A stretch of 64,000 nucleotides of DNA, taken from the NCBI RefSeq assembly GCF_039541115.1, contig NZ_BAABFP010000002.1, positions 372,001-436,000 of the forward strand, written 5' to 3'. Shown here in pieces: positions 32,587-45,397 of this stretch (the stretch's first letter is position 1; the number at the start of each line of letters is the position of its first letter). This DNA comes from Angustibacter luteus. GTDB lineage: Bacteria > Actinomycetota > Actinomycetes > Actinomycetales > Angustibacteraceae. The translations under genes were made by a program, and so were the position numbers. A model generated the notes under the pieces. It saw only the letters and a list, made by a program, of their open reading frames with translations. It ran no database searches and was not told where the DNA came from.

Positions 32587-32859
32587 TCAGGCCTTGGGGT
32601 GCGCGAGGTTCTCGATGGGCAGCGTCACCGCGATGCTCGAGATGCGGTCGCCGCGCAGGTACAGCGTCCCGGAGCGCTGCACCACACCGGGCTCGGGCGG
32701 GGTGAAGACCTCGAGCGGTGGGAAGGCCCCGCCGGCGAGGGCCTGGTCGACCTGGCGCGTCAGCTCCTCGTACGACACCCCGAAGGCGACGTAGCTGGCG
32801 CCGTCCACATGGATCATGACGTCCGCCAGGACGTCGTCCGTCGAACTCTGCTCTGTCAC
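32587..32859 (-). CDS. Hypothetical protein (90 aa) coupled to the AAA-LuxR gene
   Basis: GTGA overlap with the upstream stop, GAGG RBS within the upstream gene end; globular-looking sequence. Confidence 0.6.
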   Translation of the reverse strand: MTEQSSTDDVLADVMIHVDGASYVAFGVSYEELTRQVDQALAGGAFPPLEVFTPPEPGVVQRSGTLYLRGDRISSIAVTLPIENLAHPKA

Positions 32860-35831
32860 AGCACAACCTCCTCGTCGAGTCCGAGGCGATAGACCAGCGC
32901 CGTCGCCTCGGAACGGTTTCGCACGTGCAGCTTGGACAGGATGTTGGACACGTGCACGCTCGCGGTCTTCTCCGTGATGTGCAGCGCGGTGCCGATCTGC
33001 CGGTTCGTCTCGCCGCGGGCGATGCGCCCGAGCACCTGCCGTTCCCGGGAGGTCAGGTCGACCAGAACGCCGTCCGTGCGGTCCGGCTGCCGAGCGTCCA
33101 CGTGGCCCGGTGGGTCGTCCAGACGCACCCGGGCGACGTCCGCGAGCCGCCGGACCCAGGTCGCCAAGGTCCCCGGGCCGAGCGGGGCCAGCACGTCTGC
33201 GGCGCGGCGCAACGGTTCCGCCACGGCCGGGGCACCGTGCTCGGCGAGCGCCAGCTCGGCCCCGCGCAGCCACGCATAGCCCGCCAGCTGCGGTTGTCCG
33301 CCGTCCAGGCACGCCTGAGCGAGCGCCGTCCACTCCTGGGCCGTCGCGGTCCCTCCGCCCCGGGCCAGCTCCACGCGGCAGAGCGCGAGCAGCGTGCGGC
33401 ACGGCGGCAGCCAGGGCGCGGCCGCCGCCAGGGCGTCCGCCCGCGCCGCGAGGTCGTCGGCGGCGGACCTGAGGTCCCCCTCGGCAGGAGCGTCGGCGGC
33501 GCGCAACGCCGTCGGGCGCCCCAGCAGGTCTGCGGCGGCGCGCAGCCCTAGCGCGCACATGCGCAGCCCGGACGTCGGGTCGTCCGCCAGGAACTCCTGT
33601 CGACCGACCACCTGCGCCAGCGCGTCCTGCGGACTGCCCTCCTCCAGGGCGAGCGAACCGGAGACCAGGGCCACCTGGTTCGCGGTCAGCACGTCGCCCG
33701 GGTCGACGGGGCCGATCGCGTGCAGCGCCCCCCGGGCCTCGTCCAGGGCCCCCAGCTCGACCAGCGCCTCGCCGAGCACGGCGAGCAGGTACGGCCGGGT
33801 GGTCCGCGCCGTCGGCCCGGTGGCCGACTCGAGCACGGTCTCCAGGATCTGCCTGGCCTCCGCGAACCGACCGCAGGCGAGCAGCGCGGTGGCCTCGTTG
33901 GCGGTCAGCAAGGCGCCGTTGGTCAGCGCGAGACCGTGCCGTTCGGCCACCTGCAGCCCGGACCGTGCGGCCTGCGCGGCATCGGCCCACCGCCCGGCGC
34001 TCTCCAGCACGTACGTCAGGTTGATCCAGGCGCGCAGGGTGGCCTCGACGTCCCCGAGCCGCTCGGACAGCTCGAGCGCCTCGCGCATGCTGGGCACGGC
34101 CCGGTCCGGTCCGTCCAGGACCACCACGTTGACGCCGTCAACGGCCAGCACGTACGCCCTGGTGGCGAGGTCGTCCACGGCTCGGGCGAGCGCGAGCGCC
34201 TGCTCGCACTCCTCGTGCGAGGCCTCGTACTGGCCGCGGACCATCCGGATCGCGCCGAGGGTCGCGTGGCAGCGCGCCGCCAGCGACCGGCCGGGCTCCA
34301 GCGGTCTGGTCGGCGCCGTGGCGCAGGCCTCACGCGCGGCGGCCAGCGCGGCCTCGCCGTCGCCCGTGTCGTTCAGGTGCAGCGCCAACCGCTCCAGCAC
34401 CTCGGCCCGCCGCGCCGCGTCGTCCCGGCCCACCTCGTCCAGCGCGAGCCGCAGGCTCTCCACCCCGTCGGCGGCCTGCGGCCCGCGACGTAGCGACACG
34501 GCGAGCTCCATCCGGACGGCCGGGCGGTCCAGTCCCTCGACCGTGGCGGGCGCAGCGCCCGGCTGTGCGTCCGGCCACAGCCCCAGGGCCGTGCGCCACA
34601 GGCGCGCGGCGTCGGTCGGCGAGCGCCTCGCCGTCGCGGCGCGGGCCGCCCGGACCAGCGGGGCCACGGCGAGGTCCGGGCGCCCGGCCGCCTGCCAGTG
34701 CTCGGCGAGCACCGCCGCCGCCCGCTCCGGGCCCCCCACCAGCTCGGGGTCCGCGTCGACCCGCTCGGCGACCCGGGTGTGCCAGGCGACCCGTTCGCCG
34801 GGGAGCAGGTCGCCGTACACCGCCTCCTGCAGCAGGGCGTGCCGGACGACGAACGCGTCGCTGCCGTGCCGTTGCAGCAGCCCGTCCCGCAGCGCCACGC
34901 GCAGCGCGACGTTCAGGTCGGCCACGTCGGCGTCGATGACGCCGGTCAGCAGCTCGTGGCGCACCGGACCGGCGACCACGCAGACCACCTGGACGATCTG
35001 TCTGGCTGTCGGCGGCAGCTGCGCGTGCCGGACCAGCAGCACGTCGCGCAACGCCTCCGGCAGTGGCTGGTCCGGGTCGCTGGCGCGGGCCAGCTCCTCG
35101 GCGAAGAACGGGTTGCCCATCGCGCGGCGCACGAGGCGGCCCACGTCGTCGGCGCCCAGGGCGGGTTCGACGTCCGCGATGATCTGCGCCACCGCCGGGT
35201 CAGTGAGCGCCGCGAGGTCGATCCGCGAGCAGCGCGGCATCGAACCCAGCTGCGTCAGGGCCTCCCGCAGCCACTGCGGCTGGGACGGCTCGTCGGTGCG
35301 CAGCGTGCCGACGACCAGGAGCCGCTCGACGGACAGGTTGCCGGCGAGGAACAGCAGCAGGTCCGTGGTCGCCTGGTCGGCCCAGTGCAGGTCCTCCAGC
35401 ACCAGCACGACCGGGCGCTGGGCGGCGAGCTGGGCGAGCAGGGCGAGCGTGAGCTCCAGCACCTGCGCCCCGCGCCAGCGGTCGGCCTGCCCCGTCGGTG
35501 GCTCAGCGGCAGCCAGCACGGGCGAGACCGCAGCACGGGCCGCCGGGTGCCAGCCATCCAGCAACGGCCCCGCGGCCACCGGACGCAGGGCCTGCACGAC
35601 GGGCGCGTAGGGCAGGTGCGTGGTGGTCAGCCGCTGGCAGCCGCCGCGCAGCACCGTGACCTCCTGCAGGTCACGCGACCACTCGTCGAGCAGCCGGCTC
35701 TTGCCCGATCCGGCATCCCCACGGACCAGCACCAGACGCGGCTCGGCCCGCACGACGTCCGCCAAGGCTTGCCCCAGCAGTCCCCGCTCAGCATCCCGCC
35801 CGACGTACGCGGTCCGGAGCCCGGCTCCCAC
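32856..35831 (-). CDS. Large ATP-binding LuxR-family regulator (AAA/STAND NTPase, TPR-like region, LuxR HTH)
   Basis: YVGRDAE, Walker A GDAGSGKS, Walker B LEDLHWAD, GNPFFAEEL, LTSRERQVL...TASVHVSNILSKL. Confidence 0.93.
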   Translation of the reverse strand: MGAGLRTAYVGRDAERGLLGQALADVVRAEPRLVLVRGDAGSGKSRLLDEWSRDLQEVTVLRGGCQRLTTTHLPYAPVVQALRPVAAGPLLDGWHPAARAAVSPVLAAAEPPTGQADRWRGAQVLELTLALLAQLAAQRPVVLVLEDLHWADQATTDLLLFLAGNLSVERLLVVGTLRTDEPSQPQWLREALTQLGSMPRCSRIDLAALTDPAVAQIIADVEPALGADDVGRLVRRAMGNPFFAEELARASDPDQPLPEALRDVLLVRHAQLPPTARQIVQVVCVVAGPVRHELLTGVIDADVADLNVALRVALRDGLLQRHGSDAFVVRHALLQEAVYGDLLPGERVAWHTRVAERVDADPELVGGPERAAAVLAEHWQAAGRPDLAVAPLVRAARAATARRSPTDAARLWRTALGLWPDAQPGAAPATVEGLDRPAVRMELAVSLRRGPQAADGVESLRLALDEVGRDDAARRAEVLERLALHLNDTGDGEAALAAAREACATAPTRPLEPGRSLAARCHATLGAIRMVRGQYEASHEECEQALALARAVDDLATRAYVLAVDGVNVVVLDGPDRAVPSMREALELSERLGDVEATLRAWINLTYVLESAGRWADAAQAARSGLQVAERHGLALTNGALLTANEATALLACGRFAEARQILETVLESATGPTARTTRPYLLAVLGEALVELGALDEARGALHAIGPVDPGDVLTANQVALVSGSLALEEGSPQDALAQVVGRQEFLADDPTSGLRMCALGLRAAADLLGRPTALRAADAPAEGDLRSAADDLAARADALAAAAPWLPPCRTLLALCRVELARGGGTATAQEWTALAQACLDGGQPQLAGYAWLRGAELALAEHGAPAVAEPLRRAADVLAPLGPGTLATWVRRLADVARVRLDDPPGHVDARQPDRTDGVLVDLTSRERQVLGRIARGETNRQIGTALHITEKTASVHVSNILSKLHVRNRSEATALVYRLGLDEEVVL

Positions 35832-35865
35832 GACATCCCAGTATGCCCGCGGGGCCCGCTCGCTC

Positions 35866-35933
35866 CTAAGGGTTCTCAGTGCGGGGACTAAGGATTACTG
35901 CCGATCCGGCCGCGGGGCCTGCGCGGGCACGCT
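35866..35933 (+). promoter_or_regulatory. Putative LuxR-activated promoter of the CHAP gene
   Basis: CTAAGG direct repeat at 35866 and 35888 (22-bp period); box CTAAGGATTACTGCCGAT 35888-35905; CACGCT 22 nt later. Confidence 0.4.
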
Positions 35934-35980
35934 GACGGTGGTCGGCAACGGGCCGACCACCCGGTCCCGAGGGGGGAACG

Positions 35981-36787
35981 ATGTCATCACCTCACCAGCT
36001 GCTCGCCATCGCCCGAGCCGAGCTCGGCGCGCACGAGCTACCGCCAGGGTCCAACGTGACCAAGTACGGCAAGGCGTACGGCCTCTCACCCGCGCCGTGG
36101 TGCGCGCAGTTCGCCTGCGCGTGGGTCTGGAAGCGCGCCGACCTGCCGATCCCGAGGGACGCGGACTCCCCCAGCCACGGCTGGGCGAGCGTGCAGCACT
36201 TCCTGAACTCCGGGCACCGCCACGGGTGGGTGCTGCCCGGTGGCCGGACGGCGCACGCCCGGCCCGGCGACTACGTGTGCTTCGAGTGGGACAAGGACGT
36301 CTGGGCGGACCACGTGGGGATCGTGGTCGCCGTCTCGCCCGCCGGCCGGCTCACCACCATCGAGGGCAACTCCGCCGGTCCGCGCGGCTACGACGCCGTC
36401 GCGTACCACCACCGTTCGCGCCGGAGCGTCGCCGCGTTCGTCCGGCCGCCGTACACCCAGCACGGCACCAGCCCGGCCTCGGACACCCCGAAGCACATGG
36501 CGCACTCCAGCAGCGGCAAGCGCAGGACGGCCGCCCACCCGGTGCTGCCTCGCGGCGTGGTGCTGATGGACGGCTCGCCGCACCACGACCTCGTCGCCGT
36601 CTACCAGCACCGCATGCTCCAGCGCGGGTGGACCCCGATCGGACGCGTGGACGGCGTGTTCGGCCGCCGCACCGAGGCCGTCACCCGCGCCTTCCAGAAG
36701 CGGATGCGCCTCGACGTCGACGGTCAGGTCGGCACCGAGACCTGGACCGCTGCGTTCGCCACCAAACCCGCCAGCAAGGCCGCGTAG
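35981..36787 (+). CDS. CHAP-domain amidase with C-terminal peptidoglycan-binding domain (endolysin-like, no signal peptide)
   Basis: GSNVTKYG, WCAQF (Cys), PGDYVCFEW, DHVGIV (His), TIEGN; PG-binding DGVFGRRTEAVTRAFQ...DGQVGTETW. Confidence 0.88.
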   Translation: MSSPHQLLAIARAELGAHELPPGSNVTKYGKAYGLSPAPWCAQFACAWVWKRADLPIPRDADSPSHGWASVQHFLNSGHRHGWVLPGGRTAHARPGDYVCFEWDKDVWADHVGIVVAVSPAGRLTTIEGNSAGPRGYDAVAYHHRSRRSVAAFVRPPYTQHGTSPASDTPKHMAHSSSGKRRTAAHPVLPRGVVLMDGSPHHDLVAVYQHRMLQRGWTPIGRVDGVFGRRTEAVTRAFQKRMRLDVDGQVGTETWTAAFATKPASKAA

Positions 36788-36836
36788 GCCCACACATCCA
36801 CTGCCACCACGCATTGCCACTACCGAGGGGGACACC

Positions 36837-37388
36837 ATGTCTGCACAGCCGAACCAACCCGACTGGGCGCCGAGCCCGGCCGACCCCATGCCCTACGCGC
36901 GGACCCTCGCGCCGGCGCCGTCCACCGACCCGGCGTCCGAGGACGACTTCAGCGACCTGGACGACCTCGACTCGTTCGACCCGGACTTCCCGGCGGCCGA
37001 TCCGCGACCGACGTCGGCGGACGACGTGCTGGACGACGAGGACGCGGGGCCCGACGACGTGACGGCCGACCAGGCGACGGCCGACCAGGCGACGGCCGAC
37101 CAGTCAGCAGCACCGCAGCCGGCCGCACCCGTTGCGGTCGTTGCGGCACCGGCGAAGAAGGGCCTGCGGACCAGCGAGTTCTGGCAGACCCTGTTCACCC
37201 AGCTGCTGGCGCTCGCGGTCTCCGTCGTCGCCCTGTTCGGCGGCCGGCTGGACTCCACCGCGGTGCAGGCCCTGGTGCCGGCCGCGGCGCTGTTCGCCTC
37301 AGCGGCGTCGAGCGCCTGGTACAGCCAGTCCCGCAGCAAGGTGAAGTCCGCGCACCCGTCGACGCTCGTGCCGCCCGACGGGGTCTGA
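36837..37388 (+). CDS. Holin-like two-TM protein with acidic, low-complexity N-terminus
   Basis: KKGLRTSEFW followed by two hydrophobic helices and a basic tail SRSKVK; immediately downstream of the amidase. Holin role is inferred. Confidence 0.55.
   Translation: MSAQPNQPDWAPSPADPMPYARTLAPAPSTDPASEDDFSDLDDLDSFDPDFPAADPRPTSADDVLDDEDAGPDDVTADQATADQATADQSAAPQPAAPVAVVAAPAKKGLRTSEFWQTLFTQLLALAVSVVALFGGRLDSTAVQALVPAAALFASAASSAWYSQSRSKVKSAHPSTLVPPDGV
37061..37103 (+). repeat. In-frame 15-bp tandem repeat (~2.9 copies) encoding TADQA
   Basis: GACGGCCGACCAGGC x2 plus GACGGCCGACCAG. Confidence 0.9.
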
Positions 37389-37406
37389 CGCGCCGGCCGA
37401 GCCGGT

Positions 37407-38504
37407 TCAGGCAGCCGCCTGGGCCGGCTCGGCCGCGCGGCGTTCGTCCAGCACCGGGCGGTACCGGTCGTACCAGGTCACGATGAGGCTCAGCAGCAGC
37501 GCGAAGAACAGCGCGTGGTCGACCTGGAAGCGGTTGCTCAGCAGGTGCAGCACCTCGGTGGTCGCCAGGTTGACCGCGGCGAGGCCGACGAAGAGCAGCA
37601 CCGACGTCATCATCGACCGGTGGCGCAGTCCGACCAGCAGGCTGAAGGCCGAGTCGATGACGACGTAGATCGAGGCCGCCACGACGATCTGGCTCGGCCG
37701 GGGAGTGGCCCCGGGGAGGATCTGCATGAAGATGACGATGATCAGGCCGATGAGGGCGATCTTCTCCAGCAGCGGCCAGCTGAACAGGCGGCCGGCCGGG
37801 CTGGTGACCGGCCGCAGCCGGTCGGCCAGGACGTGCAGGTTCCAGTCCTTGGCCGGGAGCACCGAGTGCAGCAGCCACCAGGTCACCGGAACCGCCGCCA
37901 CGAGCAGCACCACCAGCGTCGGGTAGACCCAGCCGTGCTCGTCCGCGAAGTCGGTGAAGTCCAGCTCGGCCACGTGGATCCACCACTCCTGCGGGAGCTT
38001 GATGAAGATCCAGATGAACGCCGCCATACCGATCACGAACCGCTTGCTCATCCGGCGCGGGTCCCAGCGCAGCCGGACGGTCTCGTAGGCGATGAAGAAG
38101 TACTCGAACGTGTTCGGGAAGACGAGCAGCAGCCAGCGCCACGAGCTGGGGTCCGCACTGTCGTGCAGCGTCTCGAAGATGGTCACGCCGACCAGCCGGT
38201 AGTACCAGAGGAACTGCGACACGGACACCGCGACCAGGTTCGTCCAGTTGCGCATCGTGGCCATGTAGGCCATGGCCAGGTAGTAGATGTCCAGCGACTT
38301 GTCGTAGCCCTGGTAGCTGTTCTCGACCGCGCTCCAGGTCGCCGGCGTGAGGTGGTTCTGGAAGATCGTCTGGTCCGCCGCGTCGATCACCAGGCAGGCG
38401 ATGATCGCGGGCAGGGGGATCAACGGCAGCAGCAGGGGGACGAGCAGGCGCAGGGCGACGATCACCGTGATGAGCGTGATGTCGCCGGCGGTGGCCGTAT
38501 CCAT
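37407..38504 (-). CDS. Hypothetical polytopic membrane protein
   Basis: 365 aa, about 9-10 TM, GGAGG RBS; DAAD...YQGYDKSLD, FPNTFEYFF, KLPQEWWIH. Confidence 0.8.
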   Translation of the reverse strand: MDTATAGDITLITVIVALRLLVPLLLPLIPLPAIIACLVIDAADQTIFQNHLTPATWSAVENSYQGYDKSLDIYYLAMAYMATMRNWTNLVAVSVSQFLWYYRLVGVTIFETLHDSADPSSWRWLLLVFPNTFEYFFIAYETVRLRWDPRRMSKRFVIGMAAFIWIFIKLPQEWWIHVAELDFTDFADEHGWVYPTLVVLLVAAVPVTWWLLHSVLPAKDWNLHVLADRLRPVTSPAGRLFSWPLLEKIALIGLIIVIFMQILPGATPRPSQIVVAASIYVVIDSAFSLLVGLRHRSMMTSVLLFVGLAAVNLATTEVLHLLSNRFQVDHALFFALLLSLIVTWYDRYRPVLDERRAAEPAQAAA

Positions 38505-39011: not shown

Positions 39012-41900
39012 GTGTCCGGACGTGACGTGGTGGCCTCGCCCGTCCTGGTCGGTCGCGACGAGCTGCTCGCCCTCGCCGGGCGACGGCTCGAGCAGGCTGC
39101 CGCCGGCCACGGGCACCTGCTCTTCGTGGCCGGCGAGGCCGGCATCGGGAAGAGCCGGCTGCTGGGTTCGGTCTCCCGCAGCGCCGAGCGGCTCGGCTTC
39201 TCGGTACTGCGCGCCACGGCGTTCCCGGGCGACCAGCAGGACTCCGGCGGGGTGCTGCTCGACCTGGCGGGCGACCTGCGCCGGGCCGGCGACGACGCCG
39301 CCCGGTCCGCCGGAGCCGTGCTGGCGGAGCGGCTGCGCGAACCCCAGCGCCGGGAGGGCGACCGGCACCGCCGGCGACGGCTGCTGGTGCAGGACCTGTC
39401 CGACGCGCTGACCGACCTGGACGACGTCCCCCGGCTCATCGTGCTGGAGGACCTGCACTGGGCGGACCAGCTCAGCCTGGAGGTGGTCGCCCATCTCGCG
39501 ACGCGGCTGCCGGGCCGGGCGTGCCTCATGCTGGGGGCCTACCGCAGCGACGAGCTGTACCCGCGGACGGCGATGCGCGACTGGCGGTCCCGGTTGCTGT
39601 CCGGGCGGCTGGCCGAGGAGGTCCGGCTGCCCCGGATGACGGCCGCCCAGACGGCGACGCTGGCGAGCGCCGTCCTGGGTCGACCGGCGCCGGCCCAGGT
39701 CGTCGCGGCCATCCACGACCGCAGCGACGGCATCCCGCTGCACATCGAGGAGCTGCTCGCTGCGGCCACCGACGAGGCGACGGGAGTGGTCCGGGAGCCG
39801 GACCTGCGGCACGTCCCCGACACGCTCGCCGACGCCGTCCTGGCGCGGGCCGCGGCGCTGCCCGACGACGTCCGGGCGATGGCGTCGGCGGCCGCGGTCA
39901 TCGGCCGGTCGTTCGACGTCGACCTGCTCGCCGACGTGACGGCGGCGGACGCCGAGACCGTGGACCGCTGCCTGCGCGAGCTGCGCTCGGTGTACCTGGT
40001 CCGGACGGGTGCCGGCCCGGCCGGGTTCGACTTCCGGCACGCCCTGATCCGGGACGCCCTCTACGACGACGTGCCGCTCCCCCGGCGCCGGTTGCTGCAC
40101 GAGCGGGTGGCCGAGGCCGCCGTCCGCCGCGGGTACCCGGATGCGTTCGTGTCCGCGCACTACGACCAGGCCGGGATGTCGGAACCGGCCTACCGGCACG
40201 CGCGGGCTGCGGCCCGCGCCGCCGCGACCATCTCGGCGCACCGCGAGGCGCTCGAGCTGGACCGACGGGCCCTGCGGAACGCGCCCGCCGACGTCGCACC
40301 GGCCGAGCTGGCGGACCTGCTCGCCGCGCTGGCGGGTGAGGCCGCCGCGGTGGACGACAACGACAGCGCGTGCGAGGCGTTCGAGCGGGCGCACGACCTG
40401 CGCCGCGCGGACGGTGACCTGGTCGGCGCGGCGGCCCTGGTCGCGCCGCTGGTCTCGGTGACCCACCTGCTCGGCGAGAGCCTGCCGCTGCGGGTGCGCC
40501 GGCTGCAGTCGGCGCTGGACAGCATCGAGGGGCTGCCGGACGCCGAACCGGTCCGGGCCGGGCTGCTGAGCGGCCTGGCCGCCGCGTACATGCTGGATCG
40601 CCGGCTCGAGGAGTCGATCCGGTACGGCGAGCTCAGCCGCGCGCTGGTCCAGGGAAGCAGCCACGGGAGCGGCGGCGAGCGGGCCGCCGACCTGAACACC
40701 GCCGCCACCCTCGGCTCCGTGCTGCTGTTCACCGGTCAGCTGGACGCCGGTCACGCGCTGCTCGAGGAGTCGATCACCCGGGCGGTCCAGGGGCACGAGG
40801 AGGCCGAGGCCGGGCGCGGCTACCGCATGCTCGGCACCTCGGCGTCAGTGCTGGTCGAGTACGAGCGGGCGGCCGGCTGGCTGCGGCGGGGCATCGACTA
40901 CGCGGACGCGGTGGAGCTGTGGAACCACCGCAGCTACATGAGCGCGCACCTGGCGCACGTGCACTGGGCGCGCGGCGAGTGGGCCGAGGCCGAGCAGACG
41001 GCCGAGCACGCCCTGGCGGACGGGCGGGGCGGGATCACCACCCGGATCACCGCGCTCTACGTGCTGGGGTACGTCCAGCTCGGTCGGGGCGAGCTGGACG
41101 CCGCCGACGACCTGCTGGCCCAGGCCCTGCAGCTGGGCGAGTCGATGGCCGAGCTGCAACGGATCTCGCCGCCGCTGTGGGGACTGGCGCAGAGCGCGGC
41201 GCTGCGCGGGGACCACGCCCGCGCCGTCGAGCTGTGCGAGCGCGGCTACGCGCTGTCCCGGGAGGTGGCGGACGCGGCGTACCTGTTCCCGTTCCTGGTG
41301 ACCGGCGTGCGGGCGCACCTGAGCTCCGACGGGAGTGGCGGGCTCGCGCGCGACTGGTTCGGCCAGGTGCGGGACGCGTTGGTGGCCCGGTCGATTCCCG
41401 GCACCCTGCCGGCCGTGGACCACGCGCGGGGACTGCTCGAGCTCGACTCCGGTGACCTCACGGCCGCCGACGCGAGCCTGACGGACGCCGCCGCGGCCTG
41501 GGGCGCACTGGGTCGGTTCTGGGAGGGTTCCTGGGCGGTCCTGGACCAGGCCACCGCTGCGGTTCTCGGACGTCGTCCGGCGCAGGCCGTGGCCCTGGCC
41601 GAGCAGGTCCGCGCGAGTGCCGGACCGGTCGCGGCGCGGCCCCTGCTCGACGCGGCCGGCGCGGTGCTGGAGCAGGCCCGACCGAAAGCGGCGACCACCC
41701 GCTGGCACCCGTTGAGCGAGCGCGAGTTCGAGGTCGCCGCCCTGGTCGCCGAGGGGCTGACGAACCGGCAGATCGCCGAACGGCTGTTCCTGTCGCCGCG
41801 GACCGTGTCCGCCCACGTCGAGCACATCCTCAGCAAGCTGGGCGCCGCCCGACGCGCCGAGATCGCCGCCTGGGCGAGCCGGCGGCCCGCGGAGGGCTAG
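39012..41900 (+). CDS. Large ATP-binding LuxR-family regulator (AAA/STAND, TPR-like, LuxR HTH)
   Basis: LVGRDELL, GEAGIGKS, LEDLHWAD, FRHALIRD, LSEREFEVA...TVSAHVEHILSKL; GAGGAGG RBS. Confidence 0.93.
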   Translation: MSGRDVVASPVLVGRDELLALAGRRLEQAAAGHGHLLFVAGEAGIGKSRLLGSVSRSAERLGFSVLRATAFPGDQQDSGGVLLDLAGDLRRAGDDAARSAGAVLAERLREPQRREGDRHRRRRLLVQDLSDALTDLDDVPRLIVLEDLHWADQLSLEVVAHLATRLPGRACLMLGAYRSDELYPRTAMRDWRSRLLSGRLAEEVRLPRMTAAQTATLASAVLGRPAPAQVVAAIHDRSDGIPLHIEELLAAATDEATGVVREPDLRHVPDTLADAVLARAAALPDDVRAMASAAAVIGRSFDVDLLADVTAADAETVDRCLRELRSVYLVRTGAGPAGFDFRHALIRDALYDDVPLPRRRLLHERVAEAAVRRGYPDAFVSAHYDQAGMSEPAYRHARAAARAAATISAHREALELDRRALRNAPADVAPAELADLLAALAGEAAAVDDNDSACEAFERAHDLRRADGDLVGAAALVAPLVSVTHLLGESLPLRVRRLQSALDSIEGLPDAEPVRAGLLSGLAAAYMLDRRLEESIRYGELSRALVQGSSHGSGGERAADLNTAATLGSVLLFTGQLDAGHALLEESITRAVQGHEEAEAGRGYRMLGTSASVLVEYERAAGWLRRGIDYADAVELWNHRSYMSAHLAHVHWARGEWAEAEQTAEHALADGRGGITTRITALYVLGYVQLGRGELDAADDLLAQALQLGESMAELQRISPPLWGLAQSAALRGDHARAVELCERGYALSREVADAAYLFPFLVTGVRAHLSSDGSGGLARDWFGQVRDALVARSIPGTLPAVDHARGLLELDSGDLTAADASLTDAAAAWGALGRFWEGSWAVLDQATAAVLGRRPAQAVALAEQVRASAGPVAARPLLDAAGAVLEQARPKAATTRWHPLSEREFEVAALVAEGLTNRQIAERLFLSPRTVSAHVEHILSKLGAARRAEIAAWASRRPAEG

Positions 41901-42259
41901 CGGACGGCTGACCGCCAGAGCCGGTGCGTCACCAGGGCCAGCGAGAGGGCGCCGACGCCGACCGCGACCAGCCGGGAGCCACGAAGCGGACCGGCGGCCT
42001 CGGCCTGCATCACCCCGCCCTGGGACTGCCAGGACAGGACGCCGGACCCGGACTGCCCGGACATCAGTGAACCGTTGCTCTGCCAGGACAGGGCGGACAC
42101 CATCGACTGCGCGGACCCGATCGACAGCAGGGACATCGCCGACCCCACGGACCCGATGGACAGCACCGACCCGATGGAGCCGATGGACAGCACCGACCCG
42201 GTCGACCCGATGGACAGCACCGAGCCCTCGGACCACAACGACCAGCGGGAACCGTCCAC
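41897..42259 (-). CDS. Small protein with Ser-x-x (9-residue SVLSIGSxG) repeats and C-terminal TM anchor
   Basis: SVLSIGSTG SVLSIGSIG SVLSIGSVG...; TAGCGT -10-like hexamer 6 nt before the GTG. Confidence 0.7.
   Translation of the reverse strand: MDGSRWSLWSEGSVLSIGSTGSVLSIGSIGSVLSIGSVGSAMSLLSIGSAQSMVSALSWQSNGSLMSGQSGSGVLSWQSQGGVMQAEAAGPLRGSRLVAVGVGALSLALVTHRLWRSAVR
42008..42250 (-). repeat. 27-bp-period coding repeat (about 9 degenerate units)
   Basis: CCGATGGACAGCACCGA recurs every 27 bp on the + strand. Confidence 0.8.
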
Positions 42260-42823: not shown

Positions 42824-43723
42824 CTACGCGTGCGGGCAGGTGTCCCGGTACTCGAGGATCAGCGTGGACGGCGCCGGCGCCGGGCAGAGGAACTGGTCGT
42901 AGCGGGTGTCGTCGTCCACGAACCGCTTGAGCCACGCGATCGTGTACTTCGCCGTCGTGGTGTCGGCGCTCGTCGGGAAACCGTGGCTCGCGCCGCGCCG
43001 CTCCAGGTACGCCTTGTCGGGCGCGTTGGTCATCGACGCGTAGAACCGCTCGGCGTGGCTGGCGACCGGCGCCGTGGTGTCCCGCTCACCGCCGAAGATG
43101 AGCGTCGGCACCCGGACGCTGCTCCAGGTCTTGGTGGTGTCCCACGGTGTCAGCGGCACCGACGCCTGCAGCGTGGGTCGCTTCGCCGTGGCCTCGATCG
43201 CGCCGCCGCCGCCCATCGAGTGGCCGCCGACCGCGAGTCGGGTTGGGTCGATCCGGGTGCGCACGGAGCTGCTCTTGGTCAGGTAGTCCAGGGCGGCGAG
43301 CAGCTGGGTGCCTCGGGATGCGGGCTGGTCGTATACGGACAGCGTGTCGATGACGATCACGACGAAGCCCTGCGAGGCCAGCCGCGGGCCGAGCCAGCTG
43401 AGCGCGGACTGGCTGGAGGTGAAGCCGGGCGAGAGCGCGACGGCGCCGAAGGTGCCCTGGGCGGTGCTGGTCGGGTAGGTGATCGTCCCGCCGCCGAACC
43501 CGCTGACGGCGGACCGCGCCACGGTGGTCTGGGCGACGGCGAACGAGCCGCGGGTGGCCTCGATGCTCGCGGTGGTCGGCGCCGGTCCGCGTTCGTAGGG
43601 GTTGGCCGCTGCGCGCGGGACCTCGCGGTCCACGGTGGCGGCGCCGGTAGTCGCGGTGGTGACGACGAGTCCGACGGCGGCGGCGGTGGCGAGAGCGGTC
43701 AGGACGTTCCGATGTCTGCGCAC
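42824..43723 (-). CDS. Secreted cutinase/lipase, PET-hydrolase-like (dienelactone hydrolase family)
   Basis: Signal peptide, ANPYERGPAPT, GFGGGTITYP, SPGFT, GHSMGGGG, LTPW, ERDTTAP, GASH, WLKRFVDDDTRYDQFLC...TCP. Confidence 0.93.
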   Translation of the reverse strand: MRRHRNVLTALATAAAVGLVVTTATTGAATVDREVPRAAANPYERGPAPTTASIEATRGSFAVAQTTVARSAVSGFGGGTITYPTSTAQGTFGAVALSPGFTSSQSALSWLGPRLASQGFVVIVIDTLSVYDQPASRGTQLLAALDYLTKSSSVRTRIDPTRLAVGGHSMGGGGAIEATAKRPTLQASVPLTPWDTTKTWSSVRVPTLIFGGERDTTAPVASHAERFYASMTNAPDKAYLERRGASHGFPTSADTTTAKYTIAWLKRFVDDDTRYDQFLCPAPAPSTLILEYRDTCPHA

Positions 43724-43803: not shown

Positions 43804-43891
43804 TTGTGGCGAAACCTTGTGCGTGCCCGCTGCCGTCGTGTTTCATCGACCCGAACCCCTCGCCCGCGCGCCGCCCACCGCTGGAGGTCCG

Positions 43892-45397
43892 ATGTCGACG
43901 CGGGACGCGAGGTCGACGTCCGAGCGGGACGTCGACGGCGAGAAGGCCTTGCGACGCGGCGAGGGCGAGCTGCGGGACGGTGAGCCGGGGGTGGCGGCCC
44001 GCCAGCTGGCGGTGGCCGCGCAGCGGCTGACCGGCGAGCGGCGCGGGGTCGCGGTGATGCTGGCCGCCGAGGCGCACCGGATGGCCGGGGACGTCACGGA
44101 CTACGCGGACCTCGCCCGGCTGACCGCGGGTGAGGACGTGCCGCCGGTGGTGCGCTCGTACGTCGCCGGCGTGGTCGCCGTCTCGGCCGGAGACCACTCC
44201 GCCGCCGTCCGCGCGTTGCGCACCGTGCTGGACGCCGGGCGCGCGGACAGCAACGTCCGAGAGTCGTTGTGGCTCACCGAGACCGCGCTGCTGCTGGGCG
44301 AGGCCGACCGGTGCTTCGAGCACGCAACGGCGGCGGTCAGCCGGGCCCGGCTGACGGGTGACGCGGAGCTTCTGCCGACCGCGCTGGCCCAGTACGGCGC
44401 GGCGGCTCTGGTCCTGGACAGGAACCGGGCCGCCGTCGCCGCCTGCTCGGCCGGAGTGGTTGCGGCACAGGCAGTCGGGCAGCGCAACAGCCTGGCCGAG
44501 AACCTCGTGATGCAGGCCGTTGCGGCCATCGCCCGCGGTGAGCGCGACGTGGCCCTGGACCTCGTGACGGCCGCCCTGCCGGGCATCGGGCAGCGCGGCC
44601 TGGGCAAGCAGGCCGCCTGGGCGACGTGGACGCTCGCGTGCGTGGACCTGCTGGACGAGCGACCCGACGAAGCGCTGGGTCGGTTGCGCACGATGGCCAC
44701 CGGGCTGGGCCGGGCCCACCCGGCGATGCGGGTGATCATCGCGCCGCAGCTCGTCGAGGCCGCCGTGCGCTGCGACCGCGCGACCGAGGCGGCGGCGGCG
44801 CTGGCCGCGTTCGAGCACTGGGTGGGCTGGTCCGCGAACCCCAGCTGGCTGGCGCAGGTCCATCGCTGTCACGCCCTGCTCACCGACGACGACGCCGTGG
44901 CGGCCGAGCACTTCGAGACCTCGATCGCGCTGCACTGCCAGGCCGGGTCGACCCTCGAGCTCGGGCGCACGAAGCTGCACTACGCCCGGCGGCTGCGTCG
45001 CGAGCGCCTGCCGTCGGCGGCCCGCGAGCACCTGCGGGATGCGTTGCGGCTGTTCCAGACCGAGGACGCCGGGTACTGGGCCGAGCAGGTCCGGGCCGAG
45101 CTGCGAGCCACGGGCGCTCCCGACGTCGACGGCGGCAGCGCCGGGTCGGGCGCGGCCGCGCTCGCGCTGAGCCCGCAGCAGGCGCAGGTGGCCCGGCTGG
45201 TCGCCGACGGCCTCACGAACCGGGAGATCGCCCGCTCGATGAGCATCAGCTCGCGGACCGTCGACCACCACCTGCGCAACATCTTCGCCCGGCTCGGCGC
45301 GCGCTCTCGGGTGGAGGTCGCGACGGCCTGGCTCAGGTTCTCGGTGGCGCGCCCGACCACGCCCGGGCCAGCAGGTCCACCAGATCCAGCCGGCTGA
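43892..45397 (+). CDS. LuxR-family regulator (helical sensor plus C-terminal HTH, no AAA domain)
   Basis: GGAGG before ATG 43892; LSPQQAQVARLVADGLTNREIA...TVDHHLRNIFARL. Confidence 0.88.
   Translation: MSTRDARSTSERDVDGEKALRRGEGELRDGEPGVAARQLAVAAQRLTGERRGVAVMLAAEAHRMAGDVTDYADLARLTAGEDVPPVVRSYVAGVVAVSAGDHSAAVRALRTVLDAGRADSNVRESLWLTETALLLGEADRCFEHATAAVSRARLTGDAELLPTALAQYGAAALVLDRNRAAVAACSAGVVAAQAVGQRNSLAENLVMQAVAAIARGERDVALDLVTAALPGIGQRGLGKQAAWATWTLACVDLLDERPDEALGRLRTMATGLGRAHPAMRVIIAPQLVEAAVRCDRATEAAAALAAFEHWVGWSANPSWLAQVHRCHALLTDDDAVAAEHFETSIALHCQAGSTLELGRTKLHYARRLRRERLPSAAREHLRDALRLFQTEDAGYWAEQVRAELRATGAPDVDGGSAGSGAAALALSPQQAQVARLVADGLTNREIARSMSISSRTVDHHLRNIFARLGARSRVEVATAWLRFSVARPTTPGPAGPPDPAG

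Follow-up and report, generated by a model that had tools for sequence, protein, structure and literature searches.

In a 64,000-nt stretch of the Angustibacter luteus genome (positions 372,001 to 436,000 of contig NZ_BAABFP010000002.1, G000:C2:372001-436000 in a genome of 4.16 Mb and 72% GC; the whole stretch is called the window here), positions 32587..37388 hold four genes, in which a large regulator and a small overlapping open reading frame (ORF) on the minus strand face a peptidoglycan hydrolase and a 183-aa membrane protein on the plus strand, with a start-to-start spacer of 149 bp. The coordinates of all four ORFs were reproduced by ORF listing and domain searches, and the four-gene locus is real. 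It is a rare, host-maintained operon of a lysin and a hairpin membrane protein that is probably controlled by a regulator of the LAL type. The features of the locus are the following.

32587..32859, minus strand: 90-aa ORF coupled to the regulator gene by a GTGA overlap
32856..35831, minus strand: LAL/MalT-like STAND regulator of 991 aa with AAA_16, TPR and GerE/LuxR helix-turn-helix (HTH) domains
35866..35896, plus strand: CTAAGG-N-TT direct repeat, candidate operator, with copies at 35866 and 35888
35981..36787, plus strand: signal-less CHAP hydrolase of 268 aa with a C-terminal PG_binding_1 domain, endolysin-type (Pfam, PHROGs)
36837..37388, plus strand: 183-aa membrane protein with an acidic N-terminal part and a two-helix hairpin (hydropathy, structure model)
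36942..37028, plus strand: acidic motif of 29 residues (36-64) in the membrane protein, conserved (alignment, ratio of nonsynonymous to synonymous substitution rates, dN/dS)
37389..37440, plus strand: strong RNA-level hairpin, candidate end of a two-gene transcript (folding energy against shuffles)
37407..38504, minus strand: convergent 365-aa multi-pass membrane protein without a known family, which accompanies the block in the sister species

The hydrolase combines a CHAP domain (E 3e-10) with a PG_binding_1 domain (E 1e-11), has an isoelectric point (pI) of 10 and retains C41, H111 and E128, which are conserved among its relatives; its best PHROGs are endolysins. Because the reading frame is closed by a stop 15 codons upstream, no start codon lies in the interval and the N-terminus is not hydrophobic, a hidden signal peptide can be excluded, as judged from hydropathy and reading frame, and with it the upstream start that might have supplied one. 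The protein therefore has the features of an endolysin-type CHAP enzyme, namely a CHAP domain with its Cys, His and Glu, a wall-binding domain, neither a Sec nor a Tat signal and no in-frame start upstream. The earlier reading of this DNA from its letters alone (the sequence-only reading) had described a signal-less CHAP enzyme with intact Cys and His and a peptidoglycan-binding domain, which holds, and had raised export from an upstream Sec or Tat start, which is ruled out. Viral relatives of the hydrolase look like ordinary endolysins: of the 62 that are distinct, 53 have a small hydrophobic ORF alongside, the criterion being loose and lacking a background control. In a CHAP tree of 76 rows, for which ~70% of the low-GC viral rows were dropped at random, a long branch carries the two orthologues, no sister group to them is supported, and a phage donor can therefore not be named.

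The 183-aa protein, which matched no family, consists of an acidic N-terminal part of ~100 aa (24 D+E, 2 K+R), a two-helix hairpin and a basic tail. The helical hairpin is present in the structure model (pLDDT 71), in agreement with the two transmembrane (TM) helices and basic tail noted in the sequence-only reading, in which the acidic part went unmentioned. Two TM helices with both ends inside and a basic C-terminal tail are the topology of class II holins, which the hairpin model and the hydropathy of the family fit, with the weak second helix and the 100-aa acidic extension as departures; in the available parts of two papers, this N-in/C-in arrangement is known from class II holin-like proteins of actinophages (PMC6116114; PMC13056207), and 2-TM proteins of this kind in mycobacteriophages may depend on a partner (PMC13056207). 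A single-sequence search with the window protein found no shorter homologues, and an iterated search with the hairpin gave 35 proteins and then 1,889 clusters at E<=0.001. The top clusters in the Atlas are 64-95% viral (scores 0.89-0.91) with viral hypothetical proteins as neighbours, and a structural neighbour there is a putative holin of the Pam3-gp28 type (TM 0.57 over 58 residues). When 101 members were compared with PHROGs, seven of the nine annotated families among the first 25 listed were holins, each matched by single members at E 0.001-0.02; these matches, like one of the window protein to Phage_holin_10, are weak pointers to a holin. The family is also abundant in viral contigs, with an estimate of ~660 stretches. 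The hairpin was unmatched in annotated phage records and gave four weak matches (E 1e-4 to 4e-4) in 401 genomes of the phylum. By sequence and model the gene is phage-type and holin-shaped, and the chance that its product works as a holin is about even. A long acidic N-terminus was found, among 178 proteins of the family, only in the window protein and P0003, to which the orthologue at L031 is added, and the acidic motif block is conserved in all three of these long forms.

The block from 32832 to 38492, which spans the regulator, the hydrolase, the membrane protein and the 365-aa gene, is 74% identical in a second species of the genus (sister genome G003; L031 is the identical locus and was counted once), where it occupies the same chromosomal neighbourhood, and the genes on both sides differ between the species. 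The block was not found in four other genomes of the genus (three of them at least 97% complete) and is thus present in two of six; in the species-level genome collection the hydrolase has no close relative apart from L031. Pairwise comparison of the two species (Nei-Gojobori) gave dN/dS of 0.09 for the CHAP domain and 0.22 for the whole hydrolase, whose orthologue is 83% identical, 0.18 for the membrane-protein hairpin and 0.06 for the acidic motif (29 codons). The regulator, 71% identical, has 0.35 overall, 0.12 in the HTH and 0.40 in the TPR region, and the convergent 365-aa gene, 70% identical, has 0.43; for comparison, five flanking conserved genes have 0.18-0.20 and two accessory genes 0.43-0.46. 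Shown for two species are the domain make-up, catalytic and Walker residues that are all intact, conserved gene order and purifying selection. Because of this selection the hydrolase/hairpin pair is, on sequence comparison, kept by the host and not decaying, which, together with the phage relatives of both genes, supports one part of the interpretation in the sequence-only reading, the domestication of the module.

The regulator has an AAA_16 NTPase domain at residues 10-174 (E 1e-25) with intact Walker A (residue 38) and Walker B (residue 141) motifs, a TPR region at ~520-740 (TPR_MalT at E 7e-10, below its cut-off, and TPR_19 at cut-off) and a LuxR HTH at 926-978 (GerE, E 1e-17). An N-terminal STAND-type NTPase with Walker motifs, a TPR middle, a C-terminal LuxR HTH and a length of ~900-1000 aa are the marks of LAL/MalT-like STAND regulators, to which the 991-aa protein belongs by its sequence; the earlier description of a divergent NTPase-TPR-LuxR gene coupled to a 90-aa ORF also stands in coordinates and domains. 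Of seven large NTPase ORFs listed for the genome, the two other full-length ones that combine an N-terminal NTPase, an HTH and a clear upstream region are likewise divergent from a small cargo gene. The present locus differs from other LALs in that its putative target is a lysin pair and not a biosynthetic or catabolic cluster, and in the fast-evolving 90-aa ORF coupled to it.

Two copies of CTAAGG-N-TT with a period of 22 bp sit nearer the middle of the 149-bp spacer and are kept in both species, the bases between them being variable. The CTAAGG hexamer has 45 sites in the genome and is paired in this way at this spacer only. Among 251 genomes of the order the pattern occurs in two, both being this locus, and a reversed control pattern gave scattered matches; because the pattern was derived from these two loci, the scan shows rarity and is not independent support. 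The repeat is likely to be the operator of the regulator, for which it is the candidate in the sequence. MalT-like STAND proteins act as switches, and this knowledge of the family, together with the conserved repeat, makes it rather probable that the divergent regulator controls the hydrolase/hairpin pair; the regulatory claim of the sequence-only reading gains indirect support from a repeat that is conserved and unique in the genome. At the other end of the pair, the RNA-level hairpin directly after the stop of the membrane-protein gene has a folding energy of -53.8 kcal/mol (z -6.8, matched by 0 of 200 shuffles), is without a U-tract and is not kept in the sister locus. No Rfam match, sigma-70 consensus or U-tract terminator was found at the locus.

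The GTG start of the 90-aa ORF overlaps the TGA of the regulator gene, and its positional orthologue in the sister locus also overlaps the regulator stop and is just 36% identical (dN/dS 0.91, alignment uncertain). It has no Pfam or NCBIfam match; in 251 genomes of the class there were seven weak matches (one in the unpublished G519), none of them at a locus with a LAL match; six were translated and proved to be unrelated frames. The model is a small beta/alpha protein (pLDDT 68) whose likeness to Rv3208A/DUF3107 (Atlas TM 0.58; VIA Z 4.3, root-mean-square deviation (rmsd) 3.1 over 60 residues) is below significance. Among fold comparisons with this model, the highest score went to a 57-aa chain from the capsid of phage SPO1 (Z 5.5, rmsd 2.8, 56 aligned), which is also below significance and matters only if the ORF turns out to be a decoy.

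Activation of the locus would start with a ligand that turns the STAND regulator on at its TPR region, after which two LuxR heads would bind the CTAAGG repeats two helical turns apart, a pair of steps that together appear fairly likely; the hydrolase and hairpin genes would then be transcribed as a two-gene operon. On the cytoplasmic side, the acidic motif in the N-terminal part of the membrane protein may hold the basic hydrolase back or position it after its synthesis in the cytoplasm, a step that is conceivable and is put at a little less than an even chance. The hairpins may oligomerise and release the hydrolase in the manner of a holin, which could equally well be so or not. The outcome would most likely be lysis or a local wall breach in a subpopulation, and the 90-aa ORF is likely to modulate the regulator. 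Of the purposes raised in the sequence-only reading, abortive infection, eDNA release and developmental autolysis may each apply. The preferred reading as a whole, a host-maintained CHAP and hairpin operon that is switched on by the LAL and in which the hairpin lets the hydrolase cut the peptidoglycan of its own cell, is tentative, its probability being somewhat below one half.

Several results weigh against this preferred reading. The second helix is weakly hydrophobic (19-residue mean up to ~1.4, against 1.7 for the first helix); no model of a named holin family scored above its cut-off for the membrane protein, the best being Phage_holin_10 (E 0.048, 14 bits against a cut-off of 27); and a fold search with the hairpin model returned nothing at E<=0.001 and no solved relative. 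A motif scan of viral sequences covered 120 stretches of an estimated ~660, of which 110 distinct ones passed filters and 76 had flanks; the scan motif is the commonest form in the family, differs from the version in the window and adds to the profile score. A wall hydrolase is adjacent at just 3 of the 76 viral hairpin loci, T7-like portal, scaffold or capsid genes adjoin the hairpin at 15 and tubulin-like genes at 6. Among the closest bacterial relatives, a recognisable wall hydrolase lies beside none of 33 metagenome loci (16 clusters, 43 neighbour ORFs), only 10 of which have 800 nt on both sides. The trio of regulator, hydrolase and hairpin protein is known from two genomes: neither a LAL NTPase nor the hairpin family was found in any of 40 other CHAP regions, which were taken from the best matches of a CHAP profile (52 of 401 class genomes matched) with ~8 kb on each side where the contig allowed, and many actinobacterial chromosomes carry signal-less CHAP genes without a holin-like neighbour. 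The holin assignment of the sequence-only reading accordingly finds no family model above cut-off and seldom a lysin next door, and its trio of LAL, CHAP and holin is not a spread arrangement; the range is narrow, which limits the reach of the locus itself.

The neighbours of the hairpin family are varied. One of the 76 viral loci adjoins DUF5675, which we take to be lysin-like; most of the viral neighbour ORFs that were scanned (143 + 94 in Pfam, 118 in PHROGs) are without a family. Among the viral loci L225-L304, the hairpin gene lies between the scaffold and major capsid genes in 15 T7-like contigs; in six others a tubulin/FtsZ-like gene stands immediately upstream of it, two of them also having a Clp-type protease. 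Neighbours at the metagenome loci include SCO4226-like proteins, patatins, one divergent AAA_16 gene and a GH76 glycoside hydrolase domain that shares the open frame of the hairpin; the last arrangement was seen in two soil-metagenome lineages (L043-L050, L057), where a true fusion and a separate start are both possible. Two neighbours of the Cys/His type had no PDB match.

Chromosomal relatives of the hydrolase also stand in several settings. In G075, one of three earlier loci, a LAL is divergent from an operon that contains a signal-less CHAP gene, and in G008 two STAND-type cyclase genes converge on the CHAP gene. A conserved protein of ~515-525 aa, of no known family and with a Gly/Ser-rich, beta-type C-terminal part, follows a signal-less CHAP gene at L020:11959-14319 (G075) and L100:8398-10761 (unpublished G525). 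A second arrangement of membrane protein, acidic segment and CHAP was seen at L022, L101 and L102 (G008, G076, G036), where the signal-less CHAP gene is directly preceded by, and coupled to, the gene of a ~480-aa multi-TM protein whose C-terminal tail is acidic.

If the LAL controls the pair, the membrane protein could act through its acidic motif as a tether, chaperone or inhibitor instead of a pore, and the enzyme would leave the cell otherwise or act after membrane failure. This alternative is rather unlikely, and it draws on the family being rarely linked to lysins and often stand-alone or in a GH76 frame, and on the acidic motif, a candidate contact site for the basic hydrolase from its sequence, being more conserved than the hairpin. 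It also draws on short acidic ORFs whose end meets the start of the CHAP gene; they precede 12 of 26 chromosomal genes with an N-terminal domain (signal-less), none of 16 that are N-terminally extended and 9 of 62 viral ones. In these counts kin are not independent, the grouping was made by reading, and the unpublished G525 is among the 26 and was scored negative. The available text of one paper on Ms6 gives a precedent in Gp1, with holin-independent, chaperone-assisted lysin export in actinobacteria (PMC6116114). On the other side, the hairpin is small, frequent in phages and holin-like in topology, with weak holin matches, and the acidic motif lies outside the family of the upstream peptides, as the following comparison shows.

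The upstream peptides form an unnamed acidic family of ~40-55 aa with a pattern like T-D-N-x-P...D-G-[DE]-Q-D-V-x-Q-D-P, translationally coupled to signal-less CHAP lysins in actinobacterial chromosomes (L021:8354-8512, L104, L105, L106, L110, L112, L119:7559-7672, L122, L127) and high-GC phages (L171, L172, L211). Thirteen were aligned, of which 12 pass a leave-one-out test (0-2 of 1000 shuffles as good), and they are candidates for a lysin chaperone or inhibitor. Membership of the window motif in this family, to which a likeness by eye had pointed, was rejected, since 491-625 of 1000 shuffles score equally, and because of this failure the motif is an analogue at most.

The surroundings of the locus bear on the remaining explanations. 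No head, tail, integrase or phage-replication PHROG was matched among the 48 other ORFs of the window (E 1e-5), nuclease and helicase matches at 53.7-59 kb being read as host recBCD, and at the same chromosomal site in G003 no phage genes were seen on reading the ORFs, so that the pair does not belong to a prophage there. The term phage-free used in the sequence-only reading is thus right for the window and wrong for the genome, in which a prophage-like region of ~33 kb lies near a tRNA-Lys (G000:C7:329000-362200). A capsid gene was found there by profile match, tail, integrase-like, lysin-like and holin-like ORFs were recognised by eye, and Terminase_6N was not found; its genes match neither the CHAP domain of the hydrolase nor the hairpin. 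Gene shuffling has made the region around the locus a mosaic, in which three LAL-like regulators lie within 13 kb. Between 38567 and 45397 stand two further large LuxR-tailed regulators, each facing small cargo: an AAA_16-TPR-LuxR gene (39012-41900), which faces a gene for an SCO4226-like nickel-binding protein across a spacer that contains a palindrome, and a TPR-LuxR gene (~43823-45397) divergent from a PETase-like hydrolase gene (42824-43723). A small ORF of SxLSIGS-type repeats with a hydrophobic helix at its end lies at 41897-42259 (minus strand), and its orthologue in G003 directly adjoins the conserved block.

An anti-phage suicide device, in which recognition of a phage protein by the STAND regulator would set off premature lysis through the pair, with the 90-aa ORF as decoy, co-sensor or brake, is improbable. 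In its favour, the TPR sensor of the regulator evolves faster than the HTH (0.40 against 0.12), the coupled ORF has dN/dS ~0.9, the block is patchy (2 of 6 genus genomes), a prophage-like region is present elsewhere in the genome, and an NLR-like system is, in the accessible part of one paper, needed for cell lysis in the release of the Caulobacter gene transfer agent (PMC13236601). The TPR value, however, resembles those of accessory genes here, the neighbours of the locus are metabolic and regulatory genes and not a defence island, and the LALs found in the literature, as far as the sources were available, are metabolic activators. No PADLOC model of a defence system covers the genes, which gave generic HTH and TPR matches alone, and the output domain of the regulator is a LuxR HTH, unlike that of antiviral STAND (Avs/bacterial NLR) proteins.

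Comparably improbable is that the genes are chance neighbours, a prophage-derived lysis remnant beside a LAL with no relation to it, whose targets would only be itself, the 90-aa ORF or genes elsewhere. The mosaic region with its three LAL-like regulators would suit such an origin, LAL-CHAP linkage is not general (0 of 40), and two related genomes amount to one event; against this, both genes of the pair are under purifying selection at dS 0.6-1.0, the starts are only 149 bp apart and the spacer carries, towards its middle, a repeat that is conserved and unique, and the block stayed whole where flanking genes changed between the species. Slimmer still is the chance that the hydrolase is exported without suicide through the hairpin, for wall remodelling, type 10-like cargo secretion or attack on Gram-positive neighbours, for although non-lytic holin/endolysin export is established in the consulted part of PMC9527704 and related signal-less CHAP genes stand in operons with large unknown proteins (G075, G008, G076, G036, unpublished G525), the operon has no cargo gene, downstream of the membrane-protein gene come a strong hairpin and a gene that converges on it, an immunity gene is not evident, and type 10 secretion is described there for Gram-negative cells.

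Regarding known systems, the proteins belong to the LAL and CHAP families; membership in a named holin family, in type 10 secretion or in any defence system so far described is not demonstrable. The closest likeness in arrangement, from the portions of the papers at hand, is to Yersinia entomophaga ALC/RoeA (PMC10101115) and Pseudomonas aeruginosa alpBCDE/AlpA (PMC7969949), in which phage-like lysis genes outside a prophage are switched on by an adjacent regulator and a subpopulation lyses. In those systems the host is Gram-negative, the switch is a PhoB-like activator or an SOS-linked antiterminator, and the holins have been tested, whereas the present locus has an actinobacterial host, a STAND NTPase-TPR-LuxR protein and an unnamed membrane family with an acidic extension. 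Type 10 secretion, as presented in the consulted part of PMC9527704, shares a signal-less wall hydrolase and a small membrane protein of prophage derivation; here the host is monoderm, the holin is putative, and no cargo gene or third gene of the operon was found, although unlinked cargo is possible. With actinophage CHAP cassettes such as Ms6 Gp1-LysA-Gp4/Gp5 (PMC6116114, in part) the locus shares a signal-less CHAP and peptidoglycan-binding lysin, an adjacent 2-TM gene and a possible lysin-handling accessory, but it has no phage body, and its acidic element is fused to the downstream hairpin and is not a separate upstream gene, Gp1 being likened to it by role. STAND-type transcription factors are treated as NLR-like switches in the accessible part of a preprint (bioRxiv 10.64898/2026.09.02.748808), and Caulobacter LypABC, in the part of PMC13236601 drawn on here, ties a STAND-class ATPase to lysis of the host cell, as proposed for the window; LypABC acts through peptidases at the protein level, whereas the window STAND protein is a transcription factor that faces lysis genes. 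Among literature titles, with most subscription papers out of scope, no LAL-controlled lysis pair was found.

If the preferred reading is true, a STAND sensor-regulator of a class mostly studied as activators of metabolite clusters would be tied directly to programmed wall breakdown in an actinobacterium. In its widest form, in which an NLR-like STAND factor triggers a domesticated lysis device of a monoderm, a new holin family holds its own endolysin on an acidic leash, and the hairpin family (~1,900 clusters) is the missing holin class of uncultured phages, the proposal is quite doubtful. The preferred reading, if true, would also make the two host-kept genes of the locus a system for testing holin activity in a large phage family of membrane proteins that has no annotation, and the coupling of acidic peptides to signal-less but not to exported CHAP lysins suggests a general lysin-handling accessory in actinophages.

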